A stretch of DNA of 64,000 nucleotides from Bacteroidales bacterium (lineage in GTDB: Bacteria > Bacteroidota > Bacteroidia > Bacteroidales > UBA10428): NCBI GenBank assembly GCA_035299085.1, contig DATGXG010000019.1, positions 78,783-142,782 of the forward strand. Reading direction: 5' to 3'. Below, in pieces: positions 21,553 to 56,883 of the stretch. The notes under the pieces are model-generated. The model was not told the DNA's origin and searched no databases. It worked only from the letters and a program-made list of their open reading frames with translations. Every line of letters starts with the position of its first letter. Position 1 is the first letter of the stretch. A program made the position numbers and the translations under genes.

Positions 21553-21566
21553 CAGGGATTGTTCCG

Positions 21567-24500: not shown

Positions 24501-24755
24501 GAAAAAAACTTTACCAATCATACATTCAAGGTTGAAAAAGGCGATTCGGTGTATATGTTCTCCGACGGTTATGCCGACCAGTTCGGCGGCCCCGACGGGA
24601 AGAAATTCAAAACATCGACTCTTAAGGAGCTTCTCCGTAATATAAGCGAATCCGATACGGAAACCCGGTTAAAAATTCTTGACTCTGCTTTTGAGAACTG
24701 GAAAGGTAACGGAGAGCAAATAGATGATGTGCTTGTTTTCGGACGCCAGTTTTAA
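21567..24755 (+). CDS. Sensor protein: two-component-regulator beta-propeller repeats + Y_Y_Y domain + TM helix + coiled coil + SpoIIE/PP2C phosphatase domain
   Basis: Many (D/E)xxGNLWIGT repeats. Y_Y_Y-like YQVLLQGYDEKWQ...GRYIFKVRAKNEYGEW. TM helix FIISVVLIILAFIIVYI. C-terminal SGDFYW...DCTGHGVPGA...FSDGYADQ PP2C motifs. Confidence 0.8.
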   Translation: MMPMVILQVKRLPLLIIAAVSGIAGSAQTYFFDNYSTQQEFESKVYCIVQDRQHYVWLGTPAGLWRYEGKTFTNESQAKGLPDGSVRALFIDDNQNLWIGYEGGGIFRKTGTRYERIASLDSVLKSNITSINEDKDKRLWITSESDGALVIENPGAPVKTLKYEHFLKGKSLGDQVFNSTVTSNGNLYFITNIGIKKYNKEGHRFEVFKPTGLSTYFSISVFYEDSKGNLWFGTYNGGLSKMDARDKSFTYYDTGDGLASNWITAITEDKSGNIWIGHWKDNVNTGGISRIDPKGNIQVFNTGNGLHDDHIWCITEDHEGNLLIGTTDMGLEIFKGEKFVSYMNTPGVIGNQVNAIIESTPGDIWFGTNQGISEFHREKDRATVTQINQSNHFISNQIRFFKKDNNGNIWIGTGDEGVLLYNTRKRQFISQPGINSYIPYYQVLTKGITALEITNDGHLWIGTIEGLVEFDINNNRYVATYTQGNGIAGNEISALYADTKGLLWVGSGKNKGLALLKDRKFTIIKRLGEISPSCITEDRSGNIWIGTDSKGIYVLKESTVIHYGIVNGLLSNHINLLCCDEHDNIFAGSNLGLNKIDQRNQKIISYTRKLGFTGIETKPNAWFADDRGYMWIGTANGAMRCDSRLLAEEDTIKPGIRITGILMKGASLDSSSTRRFSSTENDFTFNYASISFANPEGITYQVLLQGYDEKWQDVKNETRKIYNKLAPGRYIFKVRAKNEYGEWTLKPAEYSFRILAPFYKRGYFIISVVLIILAFIIVYIKIRERNLIQEKRVLEARVNERTQALQEANLLLSMKNKDILDSITYAKRIQLAILPTEILFEKTFILYKPKDIVSGDFYWMNVAGGKEFAAAVDCTGHGVPGAFMSFIGFTSLNKIIIEQGIYNPAAILDRLNIEVAVTLHQKGEAIVNDGMDISLICYSPDTGILEFSGAFNSLVIIRNKELIEIKADRFAIGRSTGNEKNFTNHTFKVEKGDSVYMFSDGYADQFGGPDGKKFKTSTLKELLRNISESDTETRLKILDSAFENWKGNGEQIDDVLVFGRQF

Positions 24756-41025: not shown

Positions 41026-41412
41026 ATGGCAAAAAAAGAGGAGATAACAGAGCTTACCCGGGCAGAAGAAGAGGTAATGCAGATATTATGGGATATCCAA
41101 AAGGGCTTTGTAAAAAACATCGTTGAAAAATATCCCGACCCTAAACCGGCCTATAATACAGTATCTACGATTGTCCGTATCCTTGAAGCAAAAGGATTCG
41201 CAGATCACACGGCCTACGGAAAAACCCATGAATATTTTCCTATTGTGCAACGGGATGAATACCGGAAGCAGTACCTGAATAACATGCTGAAAAGCTATTT
41301 CGGAGGTTCATTCCGCCAGATGGCTTCTTTTTTTATAAAACAGGAAAAGCTTGACACCCGGGAACTGGAGGAAATCCTGAAAATGATGAATAAGGAATTG
41401 GGCAATAAATAA
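41026..41412 (+). CDS. BlaI/MecI/CopY-family transcriptional repressor
   Basis: 128-aa winged-helix protein (LTRAEEEVMQILW...YNTVSTIVRILEAKGF...). Confidence 0.9.
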   Translation: MAKKEEITELTRAEEEVMQILWDIQKGFVKNIVEKYPDPKPAYNTVSTIVRILEAKGFADHTAYGKTHEYFPIVQRDEYRKQYLNNMLKSYFGGSFRQMASFFIKQEKLDTRELEEILKMMNKELGNK

Positions 41413-41423
41413 ATGACCGGATC

Positions 41424-42671
41424 ATGACACCGTTTTTATTTTACCAGCTGAAAACAGGTTTGTGCCTGGTCTCCTTTGTTACGCTTTATTATATTCTTTT
41501 CCGCAAAGAAACTCACTATAGGTTAAACAGGATCTATCTTGTTTCTTCACTTGTTTTATCATTCATCCTGCCGCTTCTGCCGTTTCCTGAATTTAAAAAC
41601 CTGAAAGAAGGAACAATGACCACTTTCCTTCAGACAGTCACCATTTATGCGTACAATGCCGGAAAAGAAACTACTGTTGAAAAGACTCATACATCATTAA
41701 TTTCAACTGCCTATTCAGTTGTTGCCATGGTGTCGGCTTCGTGGATAGCCTGGCAATTACTTAATATGATCTTCCTTATTTTAAAAAGAGGATCCATAGC
41801 GCTGGGTAATTTCAGAATTATATCCCTGCCCCGGCGCTCCCTTTCCTATTCCTTTTTTAACCTGATATTCCTGTCGGCTTCAGAAAAAGAAGGAGAAAGC
41901 GACCAGGTATTAATGCATGAAATGGCCCATGCCCGGCAATTCCATTCTCTTGATATATTACTGATACAGATTATTAAAATATTTCAGTGGTTCAATCCAT
42001 TTATCTATTTGGCTGAAAAAGCATTGCAAGAAACCCACGAGTACCTGGCGGATGAAGCTGTATTGGAGCAGAACAACGATTCCGGCAGGTACAGGCTGCT
42101 CCTGCTTACCCAGGTTTTTGGGGTTCAACCCGGGATTTTTAGTTTGTTCAATTACTCACTTTTAAAAAAGCGTCTCTTTATGATGACAAAAGAAAAATCC
42201 CCCGACCGCAACCGGTTTAAATACCTGGCTGCGTTGCCTCTGATCATGGCCATATTGATTGTGCTCAGTTGCACAAAAAATCCGCCGCCACCACCGCCGC
42301 CACCGCCACCGCCTGTAACTGAAACAGAAGTTACACAGGTTTCAGATACTTCCAAAGCCTTTACGATAGTAGATGAAAACGCAAAATTTCAGAACGGCTC
42401 CCTGGAGGAATTTGGTCAATGGGTTCAGAAAAACATGGTATATCCTGAATCCGCTATTAAAAACAGCATTTCAGGTAAGGTTATGGTACAGTTTGCAGTG
42501 GATAAATTCGGAAAAGTGGCAGATGTAACGGTTGTCCGCAGCGCATCACCCACCTTGAGTGAAGAGGCCATCAGGGTAATACAGTCATCGCCCGAATGGA
42601 CCCCGGCCAAACTTGGAGGGAACAGCGTTAAACAGCAATTCGTGATGCCGGTAGTTTTCGCATTGAAGTAA
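41424..42671 (+). CDS. BlaR1-like M56 peptidase fused to a Pro-rich linker and one TonB C-terminal domain
   Basis: HEMAHARQFH zinc motif, 11 consecutive Pro codons (42282-42314), and a C-terminal TonB_C-like domain (GKVMVQFAVDKFGKV...). Confidence 0.85.
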   Translation: MTPFLFYQLKTGLCLVSFVTLYYILFRKETHYRLNRIYLVSSLVLSFILPLLPFPEFKNLKEGTMTTFLQTVTIYAYNAGKETTVEKTHTSLISTAYSVVAMVSASWIAWQLLNMIFLILKRGSIALGNFRIISLPRRSLSYSFFNLIFLSASEKEGESDQVLMHEMAHARQFHSLDILLIQIIKIFQWFNPFIYLAEKALQETHEYLADEAVLEQNNDSGRYRLLLLTQVFGVQPGIFSLFNYSLLKKRLFMMTKEKSPDRNRFKYLAALPLIMAILIVLSCTKNPPPPPPPPPPPVTETEVTQVSDTSKAFTIVDENAKFQNGSLEEFGQWVQKNMVYPESAIKNSISGKVMVQFAVDKFGKVADVTVVRSASPTLSEEAIRVIQSSPEWTPAKLGGNSVKQQFVMPVVFALK

Positions 42672-42757
42672 GTACATTCAAAATATACGGGGACAAGGTT
42701 TTCCTTGTCCCTCATTGGGTTTGATAAGTAGGATTCAGGTAATATAAAAACGTGAAT

Positions 42758-44407
42758 ATGACTCCCTTTTTGCTCTATCAGATCAAGGCCGGATTCTGTA
42801 TCATGGTGTTCACCGGCATTTATTTCCTGCTTTTGAGAAAAGAAACATTTTATGCGGGAAACAGGATTTACCTGGTTATTTCGGTCATTCTTTCAGCTCT
42901 GTTGCCATTGATCCGGCTACCACTTTTGCCGGCTGAAGGAGGGACAATAATTAACGGTTTTGAGGGAGCCGCAAATATTGATAATTTACCCGCGATAAAG
43001 CCTGAATCACCGACACATCAAATACCTGTTCTTTATATAGTTTACATTGCAATAGGTGTTTTGCTTCTAAGCCATCTGTTTTACCAGTTTTTTAGAATGA
43101 TGCTGATCGTGAAAAGAAACGGAAGCATAAGGCTTGGAAGATTTATAGTAGTTTCTCTTCCGATTAAATCTCATTCATTCTCCTTCTTCAACCTTATATT
43201 CATAGCATCGCCCACACCGCAGGAAGGAGAGAACGACCAGGTACTGCAGCACGAAATGGTACATGCGCGTCAGCTACATTCCCTGGATATCCTGATCATT
43301 CAATTTTTCAAAATATTTCAATGGTTCAATCCATTCATATACCTCACTGAAAAAGCCATGCAAGAAACCCACGAGTACCTGGCGGATGAAGCTGTATTGG
43401 AGCAGAACAGCGATTCCGGCAGGTACCGCCTGCTCCTGCTTACCCAGGTTTTTGGGGTTCAACCCGGGATTTTTAGTTTGTTCAATTACTCACTTATCAA
43501 AAACCGACTCAAAATGATGACTAAACAAAAATCCCCGCACCGCGCACAGCTTAAATACCTGGTTTTACTGCCACTGATCGCGGTCATGCTCTTGCTCAAC
43601 TGCACCAATAAAGAAGCTGAGGAAACACTTACCCAGGAAAACGAAAAAATCTGGGTTGGAACACCGCCTCCTCCAACCGGAAATATTACTCCCGACGAAG
43701 CCAACGCCGGAATCGATCCTTCAAAGATCACCGATGAGGATTCAACTTTTATCATGGTCGATCAACAGGCTCTTTTTCATGGGGGTGATTTAGAGAATTT
43801 CAGGGACTGGGTGCAGAAAAATGTAAAGTACCCTGAAAGTGAAATAAAAAGAGGAAATTCAGGAAGAGTAACTGTTCAGTTTGCCGTGAATTCAAAAGGG
43901 AAAGTAAGTATGGTTAAGATTCTGAAAGGAGTTTCACCTGCAATTGATGAAGAAGTGGCACGGGTTATTGCTTATTCCGACGACTGGACACCGGCCAGTT
44001 ATAAAGGGTTCCCGGTAAAACAGCAGTTTGTAATGCCGGTGATTTTTGAGTTGGAGAATGGTGTAAAAAGTACAGCGGCAAATGAAGAACAATCTTATAT
44101 TTTTGTCGAAAAACAGGCCGCATTCCAGGGCGGAAACCTTGAAACATTCAGGGACTGGGTGCAACAAAACCTCCGTTATCCCGAAACTGCTGCTAAAAAC
44201 GGGATATTCGGAAGAGTAACCATACAGTTTGCTGTCAATTCGGATGGGAAAGTATGTGATATAAAAATCATTAGGGGAGTTGCACCCTCCCTTGATGAAG
44301 AAGCCGTCCGCACCCTGCAATCTTCGCCGTTATGGATCCCGGCCGAACAGGAAGGAAAACACGTCAAACAACAATTCGTGATGCCGGTTGTATTTTCATT
44401 GGAATAG
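42758..44407 (+). CDS. Paralogous BlaR1-like M56 peptidase with two tandem TonB C-terminal domains
   Basis: HEMVHARQLH motif plus two TonB_C-like repeats (GRVTVQFAVNSKGKV... and GRVTIQFAVNSDGKV...). Confidence 0.85.
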   Translation: MTPFLLYQIKAGFCIMVFTGIYFLLLRKETFYAGNRIYLVISVILSALLPLIRLPLLPAEGGTIINGFEGAANIDNLPAIKPESPTHQIPVLYIVYIAIGVLLLSHLFYQFFRMMLIVKRNGSIRLGRFIVVSLPIKSHSFSFFNLIFIASPTPQEGENDQVLQHEMVHARQLHSLDILIIQFFKIFQWFNPFIYLTEKAMQETHEYLADEAVLEQNSDSGRYRLLLLTQVFGVQPGIFSLFNYSLIKNRLKMMTKQKSPHRAQLKYLVLLPLIAVMLLLNCTNKEAEETLTQENEKIWVGTPPPPTGNITPDEANAGIDPSKITDEDSTFIMVDQQALFHGGDLENFRDWVQKNVKYPESEIKRGNSGRVTVQFAVNSKGKVSMVKILKGVSPAIDEEVARVIAYSDDWTPASYKGFPVKQQFVMPVIFELENGVKSTAANEEQSYIFVEKQAAFQGGNLETFRDWVQQNLRYPETAAKNGIFGRVTIQFAVNSDGKVCDIKIIRGVAPSLDEEAVRTLQSSPLWIPAEQEGKHVKQQFVMPVVFSLE

Positions 44408-44545: not shown

Positions 44546-45907
44546 ATGACTTTTATCATAAAAACACCCTGTCGAGGTGGTATAAAACCAAGGGTATTCT
44601 TTTCTGTTTTATTATCGTTGATAGCATTATCTGTTGCATCAGCCCAGCAAAATAAGGTCGATTCGTTAATCAGGAATTACGATTACCAGGGGGCGCTGGA
44701 AGTTATTGACAGTATTTACCCGGATAGCATGGATATGAATATGCTGTATTTAAAAGCCGTGGCATTAAAATCCCTGTCAAAGTTTCCGGATGCAATTGCC
44801 TGTTATGATTCCCTTTATAAAAATGACTCTGCCAACACAAGGATTAGCATCGAAATGGCGGATTGCTATAAATCGGTTATGAATTATGACAAACCGGAGG
44901 AGTTATACATCAAGGCACTTGAGTACAAGCCGGGAAACCGCTATTTGATGCAACTGCTGGCAGGAGTGTACATGACGACGGAGCAATTCGGCAAGGCAAA
45001 AGAATGGTACCTGGATGCCTGCACAAATGATACATCCGTTTTTCTACTGAAACAAATAGGATGGTGCTGCGACAAACTATTGCAGGATTCAGAAGCAGAG
45101 TTTTACTATAAAAAAGCGATGGCCCTTGACCCTGATGATTACCAGCCCGTCTTCAGGCTCGGTAATTTATATAAAGATCAGCGCGATTATGAGCAGGCTA
45201 TCGCGGTTACCGATTCATTCCTGAACCGGCATCCTGATAACCGGGAAGTGACAAGGTTAAGCGGTTATGCCCATTACCTGAACCAGACGTTCAGGAAAAG
45301 CATCGCCCGGTTTCGGTGTTCGCTTGAATTATCCGATTCTTCGGCATTTGTTCTGAAATACCTCGGATACAGCTATTTTAAACTGGCTGAGTACCCGAAC
45401 GCCATTAAATACATGGAAAAAGTTTATGCGGTTGATTCATCGGATGCTGATCTGTGCTGGGCCCTTGGACTTGCCCATGACGTGCCTCAGAATATAAGGT
45501 ATTTTGAACGAGCCATCGATTTAGGCTTGCCGGTTCTAACTGCCATGGCCAAAGTGTACCTCGATCTGTCGCTTGCCTACACTAAAGCATGGCGCTATAA
45601 TGAAGCTCTTGAGGCGTTGAATAATGCGTTGAACCTGAAACCGGGCGACCCCGGAGTGATCTACAAAATAGCCGTTCACTACGATAACTGGATGGATGAC
45701 AAACCTTCGGCCCTTAAGTATTACAAAGAATTTATGACGACCCGTCCGGATGATTCATCTGATTATTTCATGACAGGAATATCAGTAATTAACCGTTCCG
45801 ATTATGGCCAGGCAGAAAGACGGATTAAAGACATCGAACAAACTGCTGCTTCTGTCGTTGAAGCGGATAGCCTAACCGGACCTGAGAAATTTACACTACC
45901 GGAGTGA
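44546..45907 (+). CDS. Secreted TPR-repeat protein
   Basis: Signal peptide (VFFSVLLSLIALSVASAQQ) and multiple TPR-like A-x-x-x-Y/F...A-L-x-x-x-P units. Confidence 0.65.
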   Translation: MTFIIKTPCRGGIKPRVFFSVLLSLIALSVASAQQNKVDSLIRNYDYQGALEVIDSIYPDSMDMNMLYLKAVALKSLSKFPDAIACYDSLYKNDSANTRISIEMADCYKSVMNYDKPEELYIKALEYKPGNRYLMQLLAGVYMTTEQFGKAKEWYLDACTNDTSVFLLKQIGWCCDKLLQDSEAEFYYKKAMALDPDDYQPVFRLGNLYKDQRDYEQAIAVTDSFLNRHPDNREVTRLSGYAHYLNQTFRKSIARFRCSLELSDSSAFVLKYLGYSYFKLAEYPNAIKYMEKVYAVDSSDADLCWALGLAHDVPQNIRYFERAIDLGLPVLTAMAKVYLDLSLAYTKAWRYNEALEALNNALNLKPGDPGVIYKIAVHYDNWMDDKPSALKYYKEFMTTRPDDSSDYFMTGISVINRSDYGQAERRIKDIEQTAASVVEADSLTGPEKFTLPE

Positions 45908-46969
45908 TCCTTTAACTTCAACCAGCTTTATCAGCTGGCGCACCATGATACCGTAAATCCAATCCGCTTTTGCGGAAAATCCTTTCATTAATAACATCAC
46001 ATACTTCAATTTCAGGCCACGCCCTTTCAGGGTGGAGCCGTATGCGGCCTCCTTTGCCAAAATAAAAGTACAGATGGAAGCAAGGTGCATGACCCGATTA
46101 TCCGGCTTAAATTGGGCTAAGGTGTAATCTTCGTTGAAATATTGCTTAATCAGAAGGAAGACAAGGCTTACACATCGCCAGATCCGACTGGCAGTTGCAA
46201 TATCATAAACGATTCCAAAATCGAGTGTACCCTGTTTCTGAATCAGAAAAGCTCTTACATCCATCAGCCAGGCCAGGCGCGAAAACTGGTGCAACGCACC
46301 ATGGTAACACAAATACACAAAACTGGCCTCATCCTTCATAATGTTCACCGGTGTACCGTCAAGATCATATTTCCTGAGATCTTCAAGAAAACCGGCAAAT
46401 CGCTTTTCTGTCAGGTAGGTATTCGCTCCTGGCCTGATATGTAAATCAATGGCACAGCGGTTTTCTTTATTGAAATAATGAACCTCACGCTTGGCCACCA
46501 GGAAGATCTTCCTTCGTAAATTTCCAGGGTAATGATTCAGGTTCGACTGAGTATAGCCTGATCCTGATAAAATCGCATGAACCACCAACAGATCGGTACC
46601 ATCGGTAAGCAGAATATCCAGGTCAACCGACTCTTTTAACGCCTCCCTGCCATACAGCATCCGGCTTAGCTGTGGGCCTTTGATGCACACATAACCAATA
46701 TTTTTTTCGTTCAGCATTTCGGCAATCGTCTTTAGCTCGTTCAACTGGGTGAGCGATTGCATGGCTATCTTGCGACTGTGCGCTTCAATCCGCGAAAGCT
46801 GTTCAGCAGTGAAATATCCTCTATGTTCCCGGGCAAAATGCTGAAGGTGGTACACGGTCTTATGGCGGAAACACAGGCGGATCAGGCGGTGGATGTTCAA
46901 ATCGGTTGTCTGGTGAACCGGTTGCCCTTTGGTTATTTGCAGCAACGCTTGTATTTCGGGGTCAGGCAT
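45896..46969 (-). CDS. Uncharacterised nucleotidyltransferase-family protein (PF14907-like), lasso-cluster associated
   Basis: 357 aa with KGPQLSRMLYG...ESVDLDILL, resembling the G-x-x...D-x-D nucleotidyltransferase fold. It shares an 8-nt overlap with the cyclase gene. Confidence 0.6.
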   Translation of the reverse strand: MPDPEIQALLQITKGQPVHQTTDLNIHRLIRLCFRHKTVYHLQHFAREHRGYFTAEQLSRIEAHSRKIAMQSLTQLNELKTIAEMLNEKNIGYVCIKGPQLSRMLYGREALKESVDLDILLTDGTDLLVVHAILSGSGYTQSNLNHYPGNLRRKIFLVAKREVHYFNKENRCAIDLHIRPGANTYLTEKRFAGFLEDLRKYDLDGTPVNIMKDEASFVYLCYHGALHQFSRLAWLMDVRAFLIQKQGTLDFGIVYDIATASRIWRCVSLVFLLIKQYFNEDYTLAQFKPDNRVMHLASICTFILAKEAAYGSTLKGRGLKLKYVMLLMKGFSAKADWIYGIMVRQLIKLVEVKGSLR

Positions 46970-48902
46970 TGCTTTGGTTTTCGGTGGTGGAATGGGACCT
47001 ATGGGACGAATGGGACGGTTTTTCCAGGTAGTAAAGAAGGATCATCAGGTAATCATAAAAGGCACCTGGATTTAAATAATTCTGATCATTAGGATCTCGC
47101 TTTGCCAGTTTTGTATACCATTCCGGGAATTTTGAAAAATCAAATATGCTATGCAGAAATGGTATTCCCGATGCTTTTTGTATTATTTGCAAAATTTCAT
47201 CCTTGTCGTTTACCAGGCTTTGCAATGTTTGTGGAATGGTGCCAACAGTTTTGTCATCCCTCTTTCTTATTTCTTCCGGCACAAATCCCCTGATGGCTTC
47301 ACGGAACATATACCGGTTCTTGCCATGATGTTGTTTCATCCAGGGTGGGAAGGCAAGTGCCGTTTCAACTACATCCAAATCCAGCAACGGGTACCTGTAC
47401 TCAATTCCGTATTGGGCGGCTGCCGTATAACAATATTCCATCCTTTGCGGAAGATGATCCGGCATAATACGATCAAACTGTCTTTCTGAAAGTGTATTCC
47501 TTTTTAATTTCCTAAAATTTTCTTCAAGCCTTGCCCTGAGATGATGCTTTAACGAAAATTCACTTTTTAAGGGAAAATTCGTAAACCGTTTATCCAGTAA
47601 ATCTCTAGTAAAAACACCACTTGTATGTGTTTCTGTATTGAGCAGAAACCGGAAATAATTAAGAGCTATCTTCACTGGTTTCAAAATGGTTTTTATACGG
47701 ACTCCCTTATAAAACAATTCATCACCGATTACCCTCCATTGCTTTTTTTGAATCAGTTCATTCCATGGAAAAGAAGTCCTTGCAGAAACCAATTCATCGC
47801 CGCCGAAACCGGATAACAAAACCTGTATACCGTTGCTTCCGGCTTTTTCATACAAGCTTTTGCTGAAAATATTAAAGTTCTGCTGTATAAAACAAGAGTG
47901 AATTTTCAAGCTGTGTTTTAGAATTTCAGGAATGCTTGACTGGTGGTGATCGATTCCATACCAGCGAAAAGATCCAAAATCAATCATATACTTAATAAAC
48001 TCTTTTTCATCCTTGAAATCAACCGTTCCGCTTTCAGGAAATAAGTTTGAAAAAGTGGTTATCTGCTTTCCTGACTCTTTAAGAAACTGATTTGCAATAC
48101 CTGTAACGGCAGAGGAATCCAATCCGCCGCTTAATTCTGATCCCATAACTGCAGTTGGATTACAACGTATTTGAACAGCTTCTGCAAGTATTTTCTTCAG
48201 GAGTACTATATAATCTTTCTCAGAGCGAAGTTGGATCTGCCTGGCAGGATCAGGTTTCCAGTAAGTATCAATAACAGTCTGTCCTTGTTTGTGATGTAAA
48301 TAATGACCCGGCTTCAGGCGGTAAACCGATTGAAAGGGGGTCTGATCCTTCCGGCTTTTCACTGTGATCAGGGTGTCTGTGAAATATTCAGCCCTGAGGC
48401 CGGGTTTTTGCAAAGCATACACCAGGTAACGGATTTCAGATGCAAACAGGAAGGATCCTTTATGGAATGTATAGAACAAGGGCCGCACACCCAGATGATC
48501 GCGTCCGCAAAAAATCTCACCGGTTTTACGATTAGTTATAACAAATGCAAAATCGCCGTAAAACAGGTTCATGCAAGCCGATCCATAGCGGATCCATGCT
48601 TCAAGGACAAGGCCGGCATCAGACTGCGATTCATTTTCAATTCCGAGTTTTTCACGCAGTATTGCTCTCTTGTACAACGCTGCATCGGCAATAATTATCC
48701 AGTCGCCCTTTTCATAAACAACCTGTTCCGGTACCATTAATGGGTTATTCACGATCACGGCCATTCCGAGGAAATCACCAGCCAATTCTTTGCAGATAAG
48801 TTTCCGGGGAATTACATATTCACTTGCCCGCTTCATCCTGTCAATCAATGAAGCGTCTGGTGTTGACCCTGCAGGTGCAATAATTCCGAAAACCGGGGGC
48901 AT
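46962..48902 (-). CDS. Asparagine-synthetase-fold lasso peptide cyclase (McjC-like)
   Basis: PP-loop SGGLDSS is present. The N-terminus is MPPVFGII, with no Cys2 glutaminase nucleophile. B1/B2/precursor genes lie nearby. Confidence 0.8.
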   Translation of the reverse strand: MPPVFGIIAPAGSTPDASLIDRMKRASEYVIPRKLICKELAGDFLGMAVIVNNPLMVPEQVVYEKGDWIIIADAALYKRAILREKLGIENESQSDAGLVLEAWIRYGSACMNLFYGDFAFVITNRKTGEIFCGRDHLGVRPLFYTFHKGSFLFASEIRYLVYALQKPGLRAEYFTDTLITVKSRKDQTPFQSVYRLKPGHYLHHKQGQTVIDTYWKPDPARQIQLRSEKDYIVLLKKILAEAVQIRCNPTAVMGSELSGGLDSSAVTGIANQFLKESGKQITTFSNLFPESGTVDFKDEKEFIKYMIDFGSFRWYGIDHHQSSIPEILKHSLKIHSCFIQQNFNIFSKSLYEKAGSNGIQVLLSGFGGDELVSARTSFPWNELIQKKQWRVIGDELFYKGVRIKTILKPVKIALNYFRFLLNTETHTSGVFTRDLLDKRFTNFPLKSEFSLKHHLRARLEENFRKLKRNTLSERQFDRIMPDHLPQRMEYCYTAAAQYGIEYRYPLLDLDVVETALAFPPWMKQHHGKNRYMFREAIRGFVPEEIRKRDDKTVGTIPQTLQSLVNDKDEILQIIQKASGIPFLHSIFDFSKFPEWYTKLAKRDPNDQNYLNPGAFYDYLMILLYYLEKPSHSSHRSHSTTENQSNA

Positions 48903-48941
48903 GTTTTTCCGTGTTTTATGCTTGACTAAATTAGTTGTTTG

Positions 48942-49180
48942 GTTTGAAATCGTTTGAAGTAGGGGGTGAAATCGTTTGAAGTAGTTTGAAATGATTTGAA
49001 ATTGTTTGAAAAAGTTATTTGCGACCTACTGAAAACATGGTTTTCAGCCTATTTGTGAAATTCGCTTTTAATTTTTTATTCGTTTTTAATTCGTGCATTC
49101 GTGGTTATTTTTTGTGGCTTGATTGGTTTCAGATAGTTTCAGATGGTTTGAGGTTGTTTCATATTGTTTTCGTGTTGTTT
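48942..49180. repeat. Phased GTTTGAA / GTTT(C/G)A decamer arrays in the divergent promoter region of the lasso cluster
   Basis: (G/A)TTTGA at 48942, 48952, 48974, 48984, 48994 and 49004. A second run reads GTTTCAGATA GTTTCAGATG GTTTGAGGTT GTTTCATATT ... GTTTGAG (about 49128-49185). Confidence 0.85.
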
Positions 49181-49202
49181 GAGATTTAGGTTATTTTTGC
49201 AT

Positions 49203-50114
49203 ATGCCTGATCCATCTTCATATTCTTACAAGGCCTTCGGTTTAAATATCCTTTCTCAATTCGAGGTCCCCGGTTTTCAACCTGCCTCTTTTTCAAATGC
49301 CGATGTCACCATCGAAAGCGGGCATGTACCTGAAACCATTGATCCGGTTATCAATAAGGGAGTACTCTTCCAGGCAAATGACCATGAGTTTATCCTCAGG
49401 ATTGTAGGAATAGCATCCTACTATATTAAGTACGGCACAACGATTCGCATACAACCGCAACCAAAAGCTGTAAGCAAAGATATCGCTGCTTTTCTCACCG
49501 GAACGTGTTTCGGTGCCCTGCTGCATCAGAGGAAACTATTGCCCTTGCATGCCGGTACCGTTGTGTTCAAAAACCGGTGCCTTGTATTCATGGGACTTTC
49601 CGGCGCAGGCAAATCTACCCTTGCGGCTGCATTTTTGAAAGCAGGCGCCACATTGGTTGCGGATGACATTTCAGTAATTGATTTTTCAGGCGAACGACCG
49701 GCTGTAAGGCCTGCGTTTCCGGCTATCAAGATGTGGCAGGACAGTTTGAAACACTTAGATTATGCTACAGATGGCCTTGTCAGTGTCCGCGAAGAGCTGA
49801 AAAAATTTTACATGCCTGTTCTACAATTCAGCGAAATACCTGTTCCTGTAGATACGCTTTTTATATTAAACAGCTACAACAAGCCGGATGCCCTGATCAA
49901 ATCTATTGAAGGAATGGATAAATTCCAGGCAGTGATAAGGCATACGTACCTGTTCCGTGGGATACCGAAAACAGGGCTTGAACAAAACCATTTTATACTG
50001 GCCGGAAAGCTGATCACAACCATTCCGCTTTTCATGCTGTCAAGGCCAGACAGTCATTTTAACACCGACAATCTTCTTGAGTTAATAAAGGAAAAAGCCG
50101 GTATCAATGGATGA
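49203..50114 (+). CDS. HPr-kinase-related P-loop kinase (lasso precursor kinase-like)
   Basis: YKAFGLNILS N-terminus and the Walker A motif GLSGAGKSTLAAAFLKAGATLVADD. ATG at 49203 is preferred. Confidence 0.75.
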   Translation: MPDPSSYSYKAFGLNILSQFEVPGFQPASFSNADVTIESGHVPETIDPVINKGVLFQANDHEFILRIVGIASYYIKYGTTIRIQPQPKAVSKDIAAFLTGTCFGALLHQRKLLPLHAGTVVFKNRCLVFMGLSGAGKSTLAAAFLKAGATLVADDISVIDFSGERPAVRPAFPAIKMWQDSLKHLDYATDGLVSVREELKKFYMPVLQFSEIPVPVDTLFILNSYNKPDALIKSIEGMDKFQAVIRHTYLFRGIPKTGLEQNHFILAGKLITTIPLFMLSRPDSHFNTDNLLELIKEKAGING

Positions 50115-50949
50115 TACCAAAAAAATAATATGGCTGGCTTCGTATCCGAAATCGGGTAACACCTGGTTCAGGGCATTTCTGACAGCACTTCTTAACCCGG
50201 ATTTAAAAGAAGTGGACATCAACAACATGGCACAAACTACCATTGCCAGCAGCCGGCAATTGTTTGATGAGGTTTCAGGAATTGAATCTTCCGATCTGAC
50301 TGCAGATGAGATCGATTCCCTGAGGCCGCGGATTTACAGGCAAAACGCTTTTGAATCAAATGAAGTCATTTATCACAAGATCCACGATGCCTGGGATGTA
50401 TTGCCCGATGGAACAGCCCTGTTTCCCATGGAAGCAACAAAAGGCGTGTTATATTTTATCCGGAATCCGCTGGATGTGGCCATTTCTTTTGCCAACCACC
50501 TGAATACAAGCATAGACAGGACTATAGAAATAATGAACAACCCGACTTATGCCTTCTGTGAAAAGAATAGTAAGCTATATAACCAGCTCCGACAACGGTT
50601 ACATACGTGGAGTGGTCATGTTAAAAGCTGGACTGAAGATTCAGGACTTCCCCTAATGGTGATCCGTTATGAAGACATGCTAACGGATACACTGGCCATC
50701 TTTTCAAAAGCAGTTTCCTTTATAGGTTTGGACCAATCTGAAGTCAATATTAAAAAAGCCCTTGACCTCTCTTCTTTTGAACAGCTCCGAAAGCAGGAAG
50801 AAACAAAGGGCTTTTCTGAAAAGAGCGCCAAATCGGAGCGATTTTTCAGGAAAGGCATAGCAGGCGACTGGAAGACTATGTTAAGCAAAGAACAAGTTGG
50901 CCGGATCAAGGAAGCACATAGTTTAACTATGTTAAAATTCGGGTATTAG
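50107..50949 (+). CDS. PAPS-dependent sulfotransferase-family protein
   Basis: 5'-PSB loop YPKSGNTWFRAF and 3'-PB region RYEDM...FFRKGIAGDWK. It shares an 8-nt overlap with the kinase gene. Confidence 0.85.
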   Translation: MDDTKKIIWLASYPKSGNTWFRAFLTALLNPDLKEVDINNMAQTTIASSRQLFDEVSGIESSDLTADEIDSLRPRIYRQNAFESNEVIYHKIHDAWDVLPDGTALFPMEATKGVLYFIRNPLDVAISFANHLNTSIDRTIEIMNNPTYAFCEKNSKLYNQLRQRLHTWSGHVKSWTEDSGLPLMVIRYEDMLTDTLAIFSKAVSFIGLDQSEVNIKKALDLSSFEQLRKQEETKGFSEKSAKSERFFRKGIAGDWKTMLSKEQVGRIKEAHSLTMLKFGY

Positions 50950-51053: not shown

Positions 51054-51371
51054 ATGGGAATTTTTACTGCAAAGAAGGAGATCGGGCCGGACACGGTGTT
51101 ACAGCGAAGGAATGATCTTTTATTCAACGAAATAGACGGGGAAATGGTAATGCTCTCAATTCATAACGGGGAGTATTATGGGATGGATAAAGTAGGTTCG
51201 AGAATTTGGAAGATTCTATCTGAACCTATAAAACTTTCTTGTCTGGTAGATAAGTTGATTTTAGAATATGAAATAAATAGAGATCAATGCTTAATTGACA
51301 CGGTTAATTTCTTGGAAAAATTACATGATAAGGCTTTAATCTTTTATGAAACAATTCCTGATAAACAATAA
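51054..51371 (+). CDS. PqqD-family RiPP recognition element (lasso B1)
   Basis: 105 aa, LLFNEIDGEMVMLSIHNGEYYGMDKVGSRIWKIL...LIDTVNFLEKL. This is the typical PqqD pattern. Confidence 0.85.
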   Translation: MGIFTAKKEIGPDTVLQRRNDLLFNEIDGEMVMLSIHNGEYYGMDKVGSRIWKILSEPIKLSCLVDKLILEYEINRDQCLIDTVNFLEKLHDKALIFYETIPDKQ

Positions 51372-51759
51372 AAAATTAAAATCTTTCATATTTTCAAGAA
51401 TTGTGGAAGTAATATTTATTTTATTGATTTTAATGTCATTATTTGTTAGATCATTAATATTTCTTTTGCCTTTAAGAACGTATAAATTTTTACTTTTTAA
51501 GCAACCTGAAATTGAAGAATCAACTTATAAAAAGTATAAAATAAAATGTTTAAACTGTGCGATTAAGAAATTTGATAAGTTGAAATTTTTAAATACATCA
51601 TGTTTTGCTAAAACAATAACAATTAAAATTTTTGCTCTCATATTTAGAATAAACAGTCTAATCGAATTAAATGTAAATACTAGAAACGAAAAAATGAGTG
51701 CACATGCTGAAATTACTTTTATTACAAAATCTAAATCCCTTTTGCTTACCTTAAATTGA
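51346..51759 (+). CDS. Lasso peptide B2 leader peptidase (transglutaminase-core-like)
   Basis: N-terminal TM-like segment, then NTSC-(33 aa)-HAEITF, comparable to the Cys...AHAW(V/I)E spacing of B2 proteins. It overlaps the pqqD-like gene by 26 nt. Confidence 0.65.
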   Translation: MKQFLINNKKLKSFIFSRIVEVIFILLILMSLFVRSLIFLLPLRTYKFLLFKQPEIEESTYKKYKIKCLNCAIKKFDKLKFLNTSCFAKTITIKIFALIFRINSLIELNVNTRNEKMSAHAEITFITKSKSLLLTLN

Positions 51760-51761
51760 TT

Positions 51762-51908
51762 ATGATGGATATTGAATTGCAAAATAAAAGAGAATGGAAT
51801 CCACCAACACTGAAAAGTCTATCAGTCAAAAAAACAGGCGGTAGTGATTCGGCTCAGTTTGGAGAAGAATCACAATATATTGATCAGGACCCTGAAAGTG
51901 GTTTTTAA
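51762..51908 (+). CDS. Candidate lasso peptide precursor (48 aa): MMDIELQNKREWNPPTLKSLSVKKTGGSDSAQFGEESQYIDQDPESGF
   Basis: Translated by hand. It starts 2 nt after the B2 stop. The leader has W-x-x-P-x-L and a Thr at the predicted -2 position. The predicted core is GSDSAQFGE..., with Gly1 and Glu9. Confidence 0.6.
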   Translation: MMDIELQNKREWNPPTLKSLSVKKTGGSDSAQFGEESQYIDQDPESGF

Positions 51909-51923
51909 ATTAACTACTTAATT

Positions 51924-54900
51924 ATGAAACTAAGATGTTCAATTAGTATTTTTTCAATTTTTATTACTGCTTTATCTTTTTCACAAGGTTGGGTCAACTC
52001 TTTGGTTATAAAAGGCTCCCAAATTGAGCCTAGATTTTCAGTAATAGACAATAATAATAACCTCATTATTTACAGTTATTTTTCTGATACTGTCTACTCT
52101 CCGTTAACTATATCGTATGGTTTAAGAGATTTATTTATAACCAAAATAAATTCCGGTGGCAGCATTCTTTGGAATAAGAGAATAGGAACTGCTAATTCAG
52201 ATGCACCTGGAGGCTTATTTGTCGATAATGATGACAATATCTATTTGACCGGTGGCTATTATTCAACGTTGAAATTTTCAACAACTGATAGTTTAAAAAA
52301 TAGTGGTAGTAGTGATATTTTTCTGGCCAAATATGATAAAAACGGAGTATTCTTATGGTCAAAAAAATTAACTTCAGCAACCACCCTGGAAATACCGCTT
52401 GACATAAAATTTGATGGGAACAATAATTTCCTTATGTCAGGTTATTTTAAGGATAGTTTGATAATCGGTGATAACCATTCTAATATTGATACTCTTTTAG
52501 GAAACACCTACAACTCACATTTTATTGCTCTATTTGATTTAAATGGAAATTTGAGCTGGTCAAAGTCTTTTTTAGGTACAAATAATTTATCTAGAATCTA
52601 CAAGGTTGGGACAAGCAGTAATGGATATTATTTTGGAGGTTATTTTGCAGGAAATTTGACTTTTGATGTAGGGACTATATCAAGTTATTCAACCAATTAC
52701 TATGACGCTTTTTTATATAAGACTGATATTAATGGACAAGGACAATGGATAAGACGTATAAGAGGTACGGCTCATGAAAATTTTCGATCATTGTCTATCG
52801 ACGAATTTGAAAATATTTACATTCTAGGGAATTATAATAGTTCGACAATATATATTGACTCTACTTCCTCAGCGATTAAAACAGTATCAGTAAATACTGG
52901 TGGATATGATACATATATTGCTAAATATAACCGAAGTGGAATCCTTCAATGGTTTCTACGAAAAGGCAGTACGGCAAAAGACATATATAATGATTTCGTT
53001 GTTCGAAATAACGTTATTTATGCAACCGGATATTTCACTGGACAAATAACTTTTCATAATGATGTCCTTACAACCAGCAGCGCAACTAATTCAGATGCTT
53101 TTGTTGCCGCATTCAATGAAATTGGCGACCCTATATCTGGGGTGAGTGTCGTAGGCACAGGCAATTACGAAGATGCCGGTACCATAGTGAATATGGATGC
53201 CAGTTCAAGGGCCTACGTGGCCGGTTACTATAAATCACAGCAAATTAAAATCGGTTCCCAAACCTACACGAGTAATAATCTTAATAAGAGCGATTTATTC
53301 TTTGCTATTTACAAACAGCGTTTTCAGGCCGTTGTCACCGATGAAGACATGGTTTCCTGCAACGGTCTGAGTGATGGAATGCTTTCTGTTACACCGTATT
53401 TCGGCAGGCCGCCATATACCTATTCATGGAGCCATAACCCGGCGCTTAATAATCCTACGGCACAAAATTTACCGGCCGGTTCTTATATCTGCACGGTCAC
53501 CGATGCCAATGACAGCATTACCCATGTAACCGGTATTGTATCGCAACCCAATCCATTTTCAGTCAATGGGGCCCTGACAAACCCGGTATGTTACAACGAA
53601 AATACAGGTGTCATCAATATTACCGTCACAGGAGGGAATACAGGTGGTTACAGTTATTTCTGGACATCACCCGACGGATCCGGAATTCAGCCGCTCATCG
53701 AGGACCAGGCAGGCTTAAGCCACGGAACATACACGGTCCGTATTCTTGATAGTAAAAATTGCGCCGATACAACTGATTTTCTTCTCACCGAACCGGCACC
53801 TTTCAATTATGAGGGCACTGCTGTCACAAAAATTTTCATTCCGCCGGGAAATAACGGTGCAATCAACTTAATTCCGCATGGCGGCACGGCACCATACACC
53901 TATTCATGGTCCGGACCCAACGGCTATACAGCAACATCCGAAGATATCGGTAACCTGAATGATGCAGGGTTATATAATCTCACTATCCATGATTCAAAAA
54001 GCTGCACGGGTGATACCACATTTACAGTTATTGATAACTTCACCTTTCAGGCTGAAATCTTTGATAAAACTGACGTCCTCTGCAAAGGTGCTGCTAACGG
54101 AACGGCAACTGTCCAGGTTTTCAATGGCACAAAACCTTATTCCTATCAATGGAGTGATGGCGTAACCCTTAATGATTCGGTACGAACCGGTATGACACCC
54201 GGAAATTATATTATTACTGTTACCGATGGTGCAATGCATACTAGTCAGGCACGTGTTACTATTACAGAACCTACATTGCCTTTGTCGGTCGTTCTTTTAC
54301 CTCAGGATCTTCATTGTTATAATGACAATTCCGGAGTTATTGATGCCACTATCAATGGAGGAACATTACCCTATTCTTATTCATGGTCCAGCGGTTACAC
54401 AGGAGAAGATCTTGTTAACGTGGCTGCTGGCATTTACACTGTTACTGTTACTGATGCCAATGGCTGCCAGGTGCAGGATACAAAAGAGATTACCCAGCCC
54501 GGCATGATGGTGGTAACTCCTGAAATAAATACTCCCATACTGTGCCATGGAAATCGTGGTGGTGTTGCTACTGTAAATGTCACTGGCGGTGTATTACCCT
54601 ATTCTTATGTATGGGATGACCGTGGCGACCAGACAACTGCAACAGCATATGACCTCAGGGCACGTACCTATCATTGTACGGTAACCGATTTCAATGAATG
54701 TTCTCAAACTGTTGACGTACCCTTACTCGAACCGGATTCACTTTATGTGGATGTGATCATTAATAATCCATCTTGCCCGGGACTGGAAGATGGCTCCATT
54801 GCTCCGACTCCTCATGGCGGAACGGGACCCGGTTACGAATACATCTGGTCGAATTCAGTCTTCCAGCGCTTTAACACCGATATTCCGGCAGGCATGTATA

Positions 54901-55955
54901 TTCTTACAATGAATGATGCCAATAACTGCGTTATTGTGGACACATTCAACCTTGCCGATCCGGATACCGTGAAAATCACATCGGTTGATGTTGCCGATAT
55001 TACCTGCCCCGGTAAAACCGATGGATCATTGACGATTCATGCCACAGGCGGATCCGGAATATATGAGTTTTCGACCGACAACGGCGATAATTATGATAAC
55101 CAGTCTGTTGCAGACAACCTGCCCTCTGGCGATTATACCGTATTGGTAAGGGACGATAAAGACTGCATTTCTGAAAACCAGCTTGCAACGATCAGTATTT
55201 CCGATACGGTAACCATTGATACAATCGATATTGCCAATGCCACCTGTAATGGAATCCATGACGGTGCGGTAACCCTTAAAGTTACCGGTGGAACAGGCAC
55301 TTACCAGTATTCAACCGACGGCGGATCAACCTTTGGCGGTGCTTCAATTCTTGCAGCCCTTGCTTCCGGTAACTACACTATCGTTGTACGCGATGGCAAT
55401 GATTGTAATTCGGAACAGTCCCTGATTACGCTGACAAACTCAGACACCATCTCAATAAGCCATATCGAATCCACCGATCTTACCTGTTCGGGACTTCCTG
55501 ACGGAACCATCACGATTACCGGGTCCGGAGGGTCAGGAGTATACCAGTATTCTATTGACGGTGGAACTACTTTTTCGGATCAACCGGCCTTCACGGGATT
55601 AAGCCAGTCTGAATACGATGTTGTCGTTAAAGATGATCATGAATGCCTTTCCGAAGAAAGCGATGTGATCCTGAATTCGCAGGACGTTTGCAGCCTTATA
55701 CTGTATAATGCCTTCACCCCGAATGATGACGGCAAGAATGATGTGTGGGATATTGAGAATGTTGCCAGTTTTCCCGATATCGTTGTGAAAATATTCAATA
55801 TCTGGGGTAAGGAAGTATTCAATTCAAAAGGCTATGATACGCCTTGGGACGGAACCTATAACGGCAATGATCTTCCCTCAGGAACCTATTATTATGTCAT
55901 CGATCCCGGAGACGGTTCCGGAATCCTGACAGGCGATGTCAGCATTGTTAAATAA
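51924..55955 (+). CDS. Giant cell-surface protein: SBBP-like beta-propeller repeats, about 13 SprB-type repeats and a type B T9SS (gliding-motility) C-terminal domain
   Basis: D(A/I)F(L/I)AKY...G..LWSK repeats. Repeated C..x..DG...(V/I)..GG..PYxYSWS units. C-terminal NAFTPNDDGKNDVW...GTYYYVI. Confidence 0.85.
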   Translation: MKLRCSISIFSIFITALSFSQGWVNSLVIKGSQIEPRFSVIDNNNNLIIYSYFSDTVYSPLTISYGLRDLFITKINSGGSILWNKRIGTANSDAPGGLFVDNDDNIYLTGGYYSTLKFSTTDSLKNSGSSDIFLAKYDKNGVFLWSKKLTSATTLEIPLDIKFDGNNNFLMSGYFKDSLIIGDNHSNIDTLLGNTYNSHFIALFDLNGNLSWSKSFLGTNNLSRIYKVGTSSNGYYFGGYFAGNLTFDVGTISSYSTNYYDAFLYKTDINGQGQWIRRIRGTAHENFRSLSIDEFENIYILGNYNSSTIYIDSTSSAIKTVSVNTGGYDTYIAKYNRSGILQWFLRKGSTAKDIYNDFVVRNNVIYATGYFTGQITFHNDVLTTSSATNSDAFVAAFNEIGDPISGVSVVGTGNYEDAGTIVNMDASSRAYVAGYYKSQQIKIGSQTYTSNNLNKSDLFFAIYKQRFQAVVTDEDMVSCNGLSDGMLSVTPYFGRPPYTYSWSHNPALNNPTAQNLPAGSYICTVTDANDSITHVTGIVSQPNPFSVNGALTNPVCYNENTGVINITVTGGNTGGYSYFWTSPDGSGIQPLIEDQAGLSHGTYTVRILDSKNCADTTDFLLTEPAPFNYEGTAVTKIFIPPGNNGAINLIPHGGTAPYTYSWSGPNGYTATSEDIGNLNDAGLYNLTIHDSKSCTGDTTFTVIDNFTFQAEIFDKTDVLCKGAANGTATVQVFNGTKPYSYQWSDGVTLNDSVRTGMTPGNYIITVTDGAMHTSQARVTITEPTLPLSVVLLPQDLHCYNDNSGVIDATINGGTLPYSYSWSSGYTGEDLVNVAAGIYTVTVTDANGCQVQDTKEITQPGMMVVTPEINTPILCHGNRGGVATVNVTGGVLPYSYVWDDRGDQTTATAYDLRARTYHCTVTDFNECSQTVDVPLLEPDSLYVDVIINNPSCPGLEDGSIAPTPHGGTGPGYEYIWSNSVFQRFNTDIPAGMYILTMNDANNCVIVDTFNLADPDTVKITSVDVADITCPGKTDGSLTIHATGGSGIYEFSTDNGDNYDNQSVADNLPSGDYTVLVRDDKDCISENQLATISISDTVTIDTIDIANATCNGIHDGAVTLKVTGGTGTYQYSTDGGSTFGGASILAALASGNYTIVVRDGNDCNSEQSLITLTNSDTISISHIESTDLTCSGLPDGTITITGSGGSGVYQYSIDGGTTFSDQPAFTGLSQSEYDVVVKDDHECLSEESDVILNSQDVCSLILYNAFTPNDDGKNDVWDIENVASFPDIVVKIFNIWGKEVFNSKGYDTPWDGTYNGNDLPSGTYYYVIDPGDGSGILTGDVSIVK

Positions 55956-55959
55956 CGTC

Positions 55960-56883
55960 ATGAACACCACTATGAAGAACATAAAAATATATCACTCCGT
56001 TCTGACAGTACTGGTCATCATGCTGTTCGTGACATTTTCAGCTAAGGTAGAGGCTCAGCAGATCCCCAACTTCAGCATGTACAACATGAATCATTACCTT
56101 GTGAATCCGGCTGCAACAGGCATAACCGACCGGCTGCCGGTTTCCTTGTCATACAGGAAGATTTGGGCGGGAATGACCAATGCACCTTCTGTACAATATC
56201 TTTCGGCGAATACCCAGGTTGCAGATAACATGGGTGTCGGAGCACGGCTCTTTAATTTCCAGGCTGGACCGTTGCGAAAAACTGGTCTTGAAGGAACTTA
56301 CAGCTATCATATTGACGTAGGCACAGAGGGAAAACTATCATTCGGACTTTCACTCCTTTTTTACCAGTTCAAGCTCAGCAAATCGGAGATGTTTGTTAAA
56401 GATATTACCGATGAGTTAATCATGGGAGATGAACAGATGTTTGTTCCTGATGCCGGAATCGGCGTATATTATTACGGCCCGAACTATTACGCCGGTATTG
56501 CAGTGCCTCAACTGTTCCAGCGTAACATCGACCTGAAATCGGATGCCATCCTGCAGCAAAAACAGGTAAGGCATTATTATATTCATGGCGGTTATATTTT
56601 TGATGCCGGAACCGATTTTAAAATAGAGCCTTCCCTGCTGCTGAAATTTGTTGAAAGCGGCATCTTCCAGGCAGATGTTAACGCCCTTGTCACTTATAAA
56701 GATATGGTGAATTTCGGCTTATCCTACAGAACTTCCGAAGCACTTTCCTTCCAGGTCGGCTATAAGAACCCGGATATTTTTATCGGCTATGCTTATGATC
56801 TCATCCTTTCAGGTATGAAAAGCAACACCTGGGGATCGCACGAGATATTGTTCACGTATACGCTGGATAATTTCCTTAAATAG
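55960..56883 (+). CDS. PorP/SprF-family type IX secretion membrane protein
   Basis: QQIPNFSMYNMNHYLVNPAATG N-terminal signature. It lies directly after a type B CTD cargo gene. The start is 55960 or 55972. Confidence 0.85.
   Translation: MNTTMKNIKIYHSVLTVLVIMLFVTFSAKVEAQQIPNFSMYNMNHYLVNPAATGITDRLPVSLSYRKIWAGMTNAPSVQYLSANTQVADNMGVGARLFNFQAGPLRKTGLEGTYSYHIDVGTEGKLSFGLSLLFYQFKLSKSEMFVKDITDELIMGDEQMFVPDAGIGVYYYGPNYYAGIAVPQLFQRNIDLKSDAILQQKQVRHYYIHGGYIFDAGTDFKIEPSLLLKFVESGIFQADVNALVTYKDMVNFGLSYRTSEALSFQVGYKNPDIFIGYAYDLILSGMKSNTWGSHEILFTYTLDNFLK

Follow-up and report, generated by a model that had tools for sequence, protein, structure and literature searches.

Here, we describe a kinase gene and a sulfotransferase gene at positions 49203-50949 of a 64,000-nucleotide stretch of DNA from a Bacteroidales bacterium (GenBank assembly GCA_035299085.1, contig DATGXG010000019.1). 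This whole stretch is referred to below as the window. The two genes belong to a complete lasso-peptide cluster, which also encodes a nucleotidyltransferase, the cyclase C, the proteins B1 and B2 and one precursor. On balance, and with a little more than even confidence, we read 49203-50949 as a kinase-sulfotransferase tailoring module within a paeninodin-like lasso-peptide cluster of a soil bacterium. An earlier interpretation made from the DNA letters alone (the sequence-only reading) had placed a kinase, a sulfotransferase and a nucleotidyltransferase in a lasso cluster; our analysis supports this view, and the sulfotransferase looks catalytically competent from its motifs. The lasso-associated sulfotransferase is probably the most widespread lasso tailoring enzyme with a chemistry still to be established, and together the kinase and sulfotransferase would add near-isobaric groups (HPO3 and SO3) to the same tail. 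The module consists of two genes:

49203..50114, plus strand: HprK/PEPCK-fold P-loop (phosphate-binding loop) peptide kinase, 303 amino acids (aa); ATG at 49203, TGA ending at 50114
50107..50949, plus strand: SULT-fold sulfotransferase, dependent on 3'-phosphoadenosine 5'-phosphosulfate (PAPS), 280 aa; ATG at 50107; PF00685 E = 1e-26, 94 bits against a cut-off of 22

Translational coupling of the kinase and the sulfotransferase

The two genes share ATGGATGA, an overlap of 8 nt that the sequence-only reading had reported and that we confirmed. We scanned for relatives of the sulfotransferase, with one genome per species, and obtained 80 loci in which the protein is 38-68% identical to ours in the best tblastn segment (individual loci are numbered L001 and so on). 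More than ten phyla are represented, among them Bacteroidota, Chloroflexota, Pseudomonadota (several classes), Acidobacteriota, Cyanobacteriota, Bacillota and Actinomycetota. At 76 of the 80 loci, the sulfotransferase gene is immediately preceded by a kinase gene on the same strand; at the other four, the gene order differs, the gap is larger or the contig ends. Altogether, the kinase gene is present in 79 loci; the 80th locus, L072, is truncated just 5' of the sulfotransferase gene. The kinase stop and the sulfotransferase start overlap by 1-16 nt in about 50 of the 80 loci, so the 8-nt overlap seen here is the norm, and a gap of <30 nt is found in 23 more.

In two loci (L068 and L071), the kinase and sulfotransferase are fused in frame through unrelated linkers. 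When used as a database query, the L071 fusion retrieved at least 120 protein clusters (at 90% identity) of 568-789 aa, most of which carry PF00685 with PF07475 or PF27840, and a fusion in the reverse order, with the sulfotransferase before the kinase, was also found. B1 adjoins the pair in 46 of the 80 loci; a nucleotidyltransferase could be detected in just 26. Kinase and sulfotransferase are translationally coupled, and their pairing is near-universal for this sulfotransferase family, spanning many phyla and often residing in one polypeptide. The dependence is one-sided: the sulfotransferase always occurs with the kinase, while the published psm cluster is listed with the kinase and without a sulfotransferase. 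The sulfotransferase family comprises >7,800 database proteins at E <= 1e-10 and is linked to lasso machinery in at least 10 phyla. The window is thus one ordinary, intact and typical member among thousands, and its value lies in offering a compact, six-gene test case with a single precursor.

In two loci of the proteobacterial type with fused enzymes (L086, 11220-13882, and L088, 6340-9055), a second sulfotransferase-kinase pair or fusion is directly preceded by an Asp/Arg beta-hydroxylase gene (PF05118), an arrangement that suggests further tailoring variants.

We place the kinase start at the ATG at 49203 and not at the TTG at 49164 because its homologues are 302-304 aa long. The protein gives weak matches to HprK-related models. 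In the PDB, a profile of its family finds HPr kinases at E = 9e-6, with the His, P-loop and ADD motifs all covered by the alignment, and its AlphaFold2 model, with a predicted local distance difference test (pLDDT) score of 92, is matched by Foldseek to phosphoenolpyruvate carboxykinase (PEPCK) and HprK/P. Four residues (H116, K137, D154 and D155) show 88-99% conservation among 95 kinases and are the ones that the family profile aligns to the HPr kinases. They correspond to the His-Lys-Asp-Asp motif of lasso kinases, which is essential according to mutagenesis (PMC9266682). We infer, by analogy with PadeK, PsmK and LppK, that this kinase would phosphorylate a Ser of the precursor with ATP. We also tried it as an adenosine 5'-phosphosulfate (APS) kinase that would supply PAPS, and rejected this assignment: the P-loop alone matches (E = 0.015-0.08), and the family profile fits HprK through the catalytic His and the Asp-Asp pair.

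For the sulfotransferase, sequence, family profile and predicted fold (AlphaFold2 pLDDT 88.9) all identify the same closest solved proteins, namely Teg12, Teg14, the SULT1 (phenol SULT) enzymes and StaL. Its motifs are PKSGNTW (residues 14-20, the 5'-phosphosulfate loop), K91-I-H93, R119 and S127 (contacting the 3'-phosphate) and FRKGIAGDW (247-255). The roles of the corresponding SULT motifs (PKxGxTW, Lys-x-His, Arg/Ser and RKGxxGDW) are known from SULT1E1. Across 83 homologues from many phyla, conservation of the motif residues, R248-x-G250 included, is 95% or higher; the exceptions, K249, G253 and D254, are at least 90% conserved in a 27-sequence alignment (A1). Since the PAPS loops and Lys91/His93 are conserved, the sulfotransferase should be active.

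The sequence-only reading had likened this enzyme to TPST and RaxST, and that analogy fails. The protein is a SULT-fold member of PF00685; against PF13469 (Sulfotransfer_3) it scores 18 bits, under the cut-off of 27, and no TPST chain appeared in PDB sequence, profile or fold searches. The similarity to Teg12, Teg14 and StaL is higher (sequence E = 5e-15 to 6e-07, family profile E = 1.7e-20, Foldseek E = 3e-12 with a template modelling (TM) score of 0.67), and these enzymes share the PAPS-binding motifs and act on a peptide natural product. They are nevertheless only ~24-26% identical to the window protein in the Foldseek alignments. A segment of our enzyme, residues 37-90, separates its two regions of alignment to Teg12 and Teg14; this segment is strongly conserved within the family of our enzyme and lacks a counterpart in those proteins. 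Moreover, Teg12, Teg14 and StaL work alone on cross-linked non-ribosomal aglycones, with no kinase partner, whereas the window enzyme is paired with a kinase.

The precursor and its tail Ser

The substrate of the module would be the product of an open reading frame (ORF) at 51762-51908, the sole precursor-like ORF in the window, which encodes MMDIELQNKREWNPPTLKSLSVKKTG followed by GSDSAQFGEESQYIDQDPESGF:

51762..51839, plus strand: leader peptide MMDIELQNKREWNPPTLKSLSVKKTG, with a WxxPxL motif (W-15, P-12, L-10) and Thr-2
51840..51908, plus strand: core GSDSAQFGEESQYIDQDPESGF and stop, with a predicted G1-E9 ring; Tyr13 codon at 51876-51878, Ser20 codon at 51897-51899

The core begins at ...KKTG/GSDSAQFGE, with T-2, G1 and E9, and so has the small first residue and the Asp or Glu at positions 7-9 of a lasso precursor; it gives a weak match to NF033524 (paeninodin family). 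The register of the leader (W-15, P-12, L-10 and T-2) is the crystallographic register of the paeninodin-like PbaA leader bound to the B1 protein, which independently supports cleavage after Thr-Gly. The leader Trp is also nearly invariant in the paeninodin-like subfamily. With the numbering that follows from this cleavage, the residues named in the sequence-only reading are all in place: S2, S4, S11 and S20, Y13 in the context E-E-S-Q-Y-I-D-Q-D, and a C-terminal Phe.

For comparison, we assembled 59 precursors from 45 loci (the window precursor and 58 related ones), aligned with the core start set 15 residues past the leader Trp. This rule yields plausible cores, with Asp or Glu at positions 7-9, in most of the 58 related precursors. 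A terminal Ser is present in 48 of the 59, and a Ser or Thr lies within the last four residues in 58. Our core ends in ...PESGF, with its Ser third from the end, and thus lacks the C-terminal Ser that characterizes the paeninodin-like subfamily. Most of the precursor family ends exactly at the tail Ser; in the window clade, residues follow it, as in PES-GF (window), PTS-GNN (L001), PTS-ETN (L004), SDS-NNI (L081) and PTPS-QG (L083). Because Ser20 aligns with the conserved tail Ser, and because this clade adds 2-3 residues after that Ser, Ser20 is by alignment the homologue of the known phospho-acceptor, the C-terminal Ser. The sequence-only reading had reasoned from the C-terminal Phe that the kinase may have another site specificity, and with this ending of the core the kinase must use a Ser that is not C-terminal. 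A non-terminal acceptor is plausible since a related kinase, LppK, phosphorylates an internal residue (Ser3). The alignment of Ser20, the obligate and often fused kinase-sulfotransferase pair and the fact that the gene trio was already known in lasso clusters all go beyond what the sequence-only reading contained.

HPr-kinase and sulfotransferase genes were noted in lasso clusters in 2014, and the paeninodin work, as relayed in a 2021 review, noted sulfotransferase and nucleotidyltransferase genes in Firmicutes lasso clusters. The gene trio has been known bioinformatically since 2014-2016, and the window does not hold a new kind of system. Its nearest characterized counterparts are the paeninodin and pseudomycoidin clusters of Bacillota (PadeK, ThcoK, PsmK and PsmN). 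These share the split B1 and B2, the cyclase C, the WxxPxL leader with Thr-2, an HprK-like kinase with the His-Lys-Asp-Asp motif, a PF14907 nucleotidyltransferase and the conserved tail Ser, and some such clusters were noted with a sulfotransferase gene. In the linear precursor, the C-terminal Ser is the residue phosphorylated by PadeK, ThcoK, SyanK and PsmK, by some of these kinases more than once, and PsmN, a member of the PF14907 family, adds a hexose to the phosphate of phospho-Ser (PMC6993621). The window cluster differs in its Bacteroidales host, in that no ABC exporter was found, in the divergent orientation of kinase and sulfotransferase relative to cyclase and nucleotidyltransferase, and in that the acceptor Ser is followed by Gly-Phe and is not C-terminal. 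A second relative is the LppK system of linear polyphosphorylated peptides (LPP, 2026), in which an HprK-like kinase of a peptide that is synthesized by ribosomes and modified post-translationally (RiPP), accompanied by a discrete RiPP recognition element (RRE) and a PF14907 nucleotidyltransferase, phosphorylates its internal Ser several times. The LPP product is linear, with a YxxP leader and signal-peptidase-like cleavage, and that system has neither a cyclase nor a sulfotransferase.

Proposed pathway and candidate sulfate acceptors

These enzymes suggest a pathway in which the order of the steps and the acceptor are the conditional parts. With ATP, the kinase would phosphorylate Ser20 while the precursor is still linear and its leader is probably held by B1, as PadeK, PsmK and LppK would lead us to expect. 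The sulfotransferase, produced in a stoichiometric amount and probably in contact with the kinase as a bound partner, would then use PAPS to sulfate a hydroxyl of the same acidic C-terminal tail; the coupling of the genes suggests that this would happen together with or just after the kinase step. By analogy with the characterized systems, the PsmN-type nucleotidyltransferase could next place a hexose on the phosphate, B2 would cut after Thr-Gly and C would close the Gly1-Glu9 ring. We lean towards a sulfated lasso peptide, arising from kinase-coupled sulfation of the tail, as the product. The sequence-only reading had regarded sulfation as a new class of lasso modification, and the searchable literature agrees with it: full-text searches found no sulfated or sulfonated lasso peptide, and the string 'sulf' is absent from a 2022 review of unusual lasso modifications. 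The sulfated RiPPs that we found in the literature are RaxX, some methanobactins and two lanthipeptides.

The acceptor proposed in the sequence-only reading was Tyr13, which the sulfotransferase would O-sulfate on account of its acidic stretch, as TPST and RaxST do, with the kinase acting separately on a Ser. We regard this as possible but doubtful, and the TPST-like acidic Tyr rationale is the weakest part of the finding. TPST and the RaxST/RaxX pair resemble the window system in using PAPS, and the acceptor here would likewise be a Tyr in an acidic peptide, but our enzyme lies outside their family, and its own family shows no conserved acidic Tyr in the substrates. The core contains six acidic and no basic residues among its 22, and because it is acidic overall, the context of Tyr13 is no more acidic than expected by chance (P = 0.115 for four acidic residues within +-4, and P = 0.58 for two within +-3). 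Across the precursor set, 38 of 59 contain any Tyr and 21 contain none. Tyr is missing from every detected core in 14 of the 45 loci; in at least 11 of these, the precursor gene itself lies within the kinase-sulfotransferase cluster. L082, a close syntenic relative with a sulfotransferase 68% identical to ours, has the core GGGDTSIAEELGGTISTLPG, with no aromatic residue. Two or more acidic residues occur within +-3 at only 9 of 55 Tyr sites, and basic neighbours at 14; no column of the sulfotransferase alignment separates Tyr-less from Tyr-containing loci. At 3-5 residues past the ring acceptor, Tyr is found in 18 precursors and Phe or Trp without Tyr in 11, a replacement that fits a structural role of the aromatic side chain. 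On the other side, a Tyr 3-4 residues past the ring Glu recurs in the window clade (L001, L004, L005, L081, L083 and L085), and an acid-flanked Tyr close to the tail Ser is found repeatedly both in that clade and in the fused-enzyme clade (in the latter, L086, EEEEDVSYYLLS; L087, EDSAYDDSL). The solved relatives Teg12, Teg14 and StaL sulfate phenolic hydroxyls of peptide antibiotics. SslST, the sole characterized SULT-type example from a RiPP pathway that we found in the literature, is PAPS-dependent like our enzyme, leader-independent and specific for Tyr5 of the cyclized peptide. It belongs, however, to another RiPP class (a sulfonated lanthipeptide), its cluster has its own CysCDN for PAPS and no kinase partner, and its authors placed it in a clade of its own, whose similarity to other natural-product sulfotransferases they could not detect. 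Tyr13 thus remains a legitimate candidate in this peptide, while the acid-flanked Tyr as a feature of the family does not stand. We name it tentatively, and at well under even confidence, as the best single candidate here and not as a family-wide site; Ser11 and the region of Ser20 are the alternatives, the remaining probability falling on the Ser and Thr hydroxyls of the tail. The acceptor is probably chosen through the kinase-bound or phosphorylated tail and not through a TPST-like acidic Tyr motif.

The tail Ser or Thr is the only acceptor candidate common to all precursors, and L044 (AFGAGSGADGAFITPF) and L075 have a single tail hydroxyl. Together with the presence of the kinase wherever the sulfotransferase occurs and the frequent fusion of the two, this raises a more radical option: the two enzymes could be halves of one bifunctional machine, in which the sulfotransferase caps the phosphate that the kinase has made on Ser20. 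The result would be a Ser-O-phosphosulfate, an APS-like mixed anhydride on the lasso tail. The Ser phosphate is already known to be extended in this peptide family, by further phosphates and by hexose. If true, the lasso tail would carry a peptide-bound counterpart of APS, a modification unprecedented on peptides or proteins. We think this improbable: hydroxyl-sulfating SULTs typically have a Lys/His pair, which this family conserves fully, a phosphosulfate would be labile and the argument for it is comparative throughout. To our knowledge, no SULT-fold enzyme sulfates a phosphate. The sulfotransferase could instead spare the peptide residues and act on the hexose added by the nucleotidyltransferase, or on another non-peptide substrate. 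SULT-fold enzymes commonly act on small molecules and sugars, kinase, sulfotransferase and nucleotidyltransferase are all present in this cluster, and PsmN-type enzymes put hexose on phospho-Ser. The distribution of the genes nevertheless makes this quite unlikely, as the nucleotidyltransferase accompanies the sulfotransferase so much less often than the kinase does (26 against 79 of the 80 loci), and translational coupling and fusions involve the kinase and not the nucleotidyltransferase. Finally, the sulfate could be a transient leaving group, with sulfation of a Ser or Thr followed by elimination, as in CurM, LGS1 and retinol dehydratase. Foldseek matches to our enzyme include the SULT-fold proteins LGS1 and retinol dehydratase, in which sulfation drives elimination (in part according to the title of the LGS1 entry). 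A C-terminal Ser is a beta-hydroxy acid like the substrate of CurM, which reportedly sulfates such a substrate before elimination. Nothing specific supports this option for the window, where the Ser is not C-terminal, and in this family phosphorylated lasso peptides are themselves the end products and are stable; we therefore hold it to be very unlikely.

Several observations weigh against kinase-coupled sulfation of the tail, which we still favour. No second hydroxyl position is universal to the precursors: L083 has no ring hydroxyl, and L044 and L075 have a single tail hydroxyl. Since no second hydroxyl is shared by all precursors, a fixed hydroxyl acceptor cannot be named. The characterized lasso kinases need a C-terminal Ser, whereas ours is third from the end, and a neighbour-joining tree of 95 kinases does not separate those paired with a sulfotransferase from those that are unpaired. 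No exporter gene and no PAPS-synthesis gene was found among the window ORFs scanned (~9.8-64 kb). The role of this sulfotransferase family in lasso clusters is, moreover, a predicted one.

Cluster layout and flanking DNA

The cluster is organized in two divergent units. Cyclase C and the nucleotidyltransferase are encoded on the minus strand, and the kinase, sulfotransferase, B1, B2 and precursor on the plus strand. The remaining features are:

45896..46969, minus strand: PsmN-type nucleotidyltransferase (NTP_transf_5), 357 aa; PF14907 E = 5.4e-38 over the full length, 131 bits against a cut-off of 31
46962..48902, minus strand: lasso cyclase C (asparagine-synthetase-like), 646 aa; PF00733 and GATase_7
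48903..49202, no strand: divergent cyclase/kinase intergenic region, with 10-11 bp tandem repeats (Tandem Repeats Finder, TRF) and a TAnnTTTG-like box
51054..51371, plus strand: B1, PqqD-like leader-binding protein (RRE), 105 aa; PF05402 E = 2e-14; NF033536 82.1 bits against a cut-off of 80
51346..51759, plus strand: B2 leader peptidase, transglutaminase-like and divergent, 137 aa; homologous to the B2 of L081

The nucleotidyltransferase that the sequence-only reading had placed at 45896-46969 is confirmed by its PF14907 match. Its start overlaps the cyclase stop by 8 nt (ATGCCTGA), and its D-L-D motif (...ESVDLDILL) would be catalytic by analogy with D134/D136 of PsmN; a PDB sequence search with this protein gave chance matches only. 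Cyclase C matches NF033535 (lasso isopeptide cyclase) with E = 1.5e-84 and 285 bits, under the curated cut-off of 525. For B2, there was no Pfam match, and NF033537 gave only E = 0.05. It aligns with the L081 B2, a PF13471 protein, at 27% identity (E = 4e-10), and the alignment pairs the Cys (SCFAK) and the His (AHAE).

The TRF arrays of the intergenic region consist of GTTTGAAATC repeated 6.8 times (48942-49011) and GATTGTTTCA repeated 4.8 times (49121-49169). Relatives have arrays in the matching place with other units: CACAACCAT in L082, TGCACAAC in L083 and CACTTTTC in L084. In the window and in L081-L085, a TAnnTTTG-like box ends ~5 nt 5' of the kinase start codon, a position that suggests a leaderless kinase mRNA. 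A sigma-70 promoter scan, which does not cover Bacteroidota promoters, found sites no more numerous than in shuffled sequence. Between the two arrays, at 49066-49114, a ~40-nt stretch is common to several other contigs of a soil metagenome run (X1), with a local depth of 45 against 14; it looks like a short dispersed repeat and has a single copy within the window.

The window sequence is present in soil metagenomes. In a soil metatranscriptome run (X13), two short contigs are at least 99% identical to 45886-46096 (the 3' end of the nucleotidyltransferase gene) and 49255-49426 (inside the kinase gene), the latter being 172 nt long and identical. They are a weak hint of in situ expression, too thin for an expression claim given that DNA carry-over is possible. 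A search of RNA runs with the sulfotransferase gene listed zero runs.

The genes that flank the cluster are ordinary Bacteroidota chromosome genes. Downstream (51924-56883), 16 nt past the precursor stop, begins a giant SprB-repeat protein gene with a CHU_C type IX secretion signal, followed by a PorP/SprF gene. An SprB-like gene lies directly 3' of the precursor gene in at least 13 other Bacteroidota loci (L001, L004, L005, L011, L012, L014, L015, L018, L023, L055, L082, L083 and L085), even where sulfotransferase identity is ~45-50%. Among the relatives, a PorP/SprF gene was seen only in L001, L004 and L082. No ABC exporter was seen in the window cluster or in these 13 SprB-linked clusters, and the lasso cluster may be functionally tied to the type IX cargo/adaptor pair.

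The 41026-44407 region directly upstream of the cluster holds a BlaI-type repressor gene and, after it, genes for two paralogous BlaR1 (M56)-TonB_C fusion proteins, and a BlaR1/TonB_C gene occupies the matching place in L001, L004 and L082. Further away, at 19201-24755, a tetratricopeptide repeat (TPR) protein with a C-terminal caspase (Peptidase_C14) domain adjoins a 1062-aa sensor of the Reg_prop/Y_Y_Y/SpoIIE phosphatase type.

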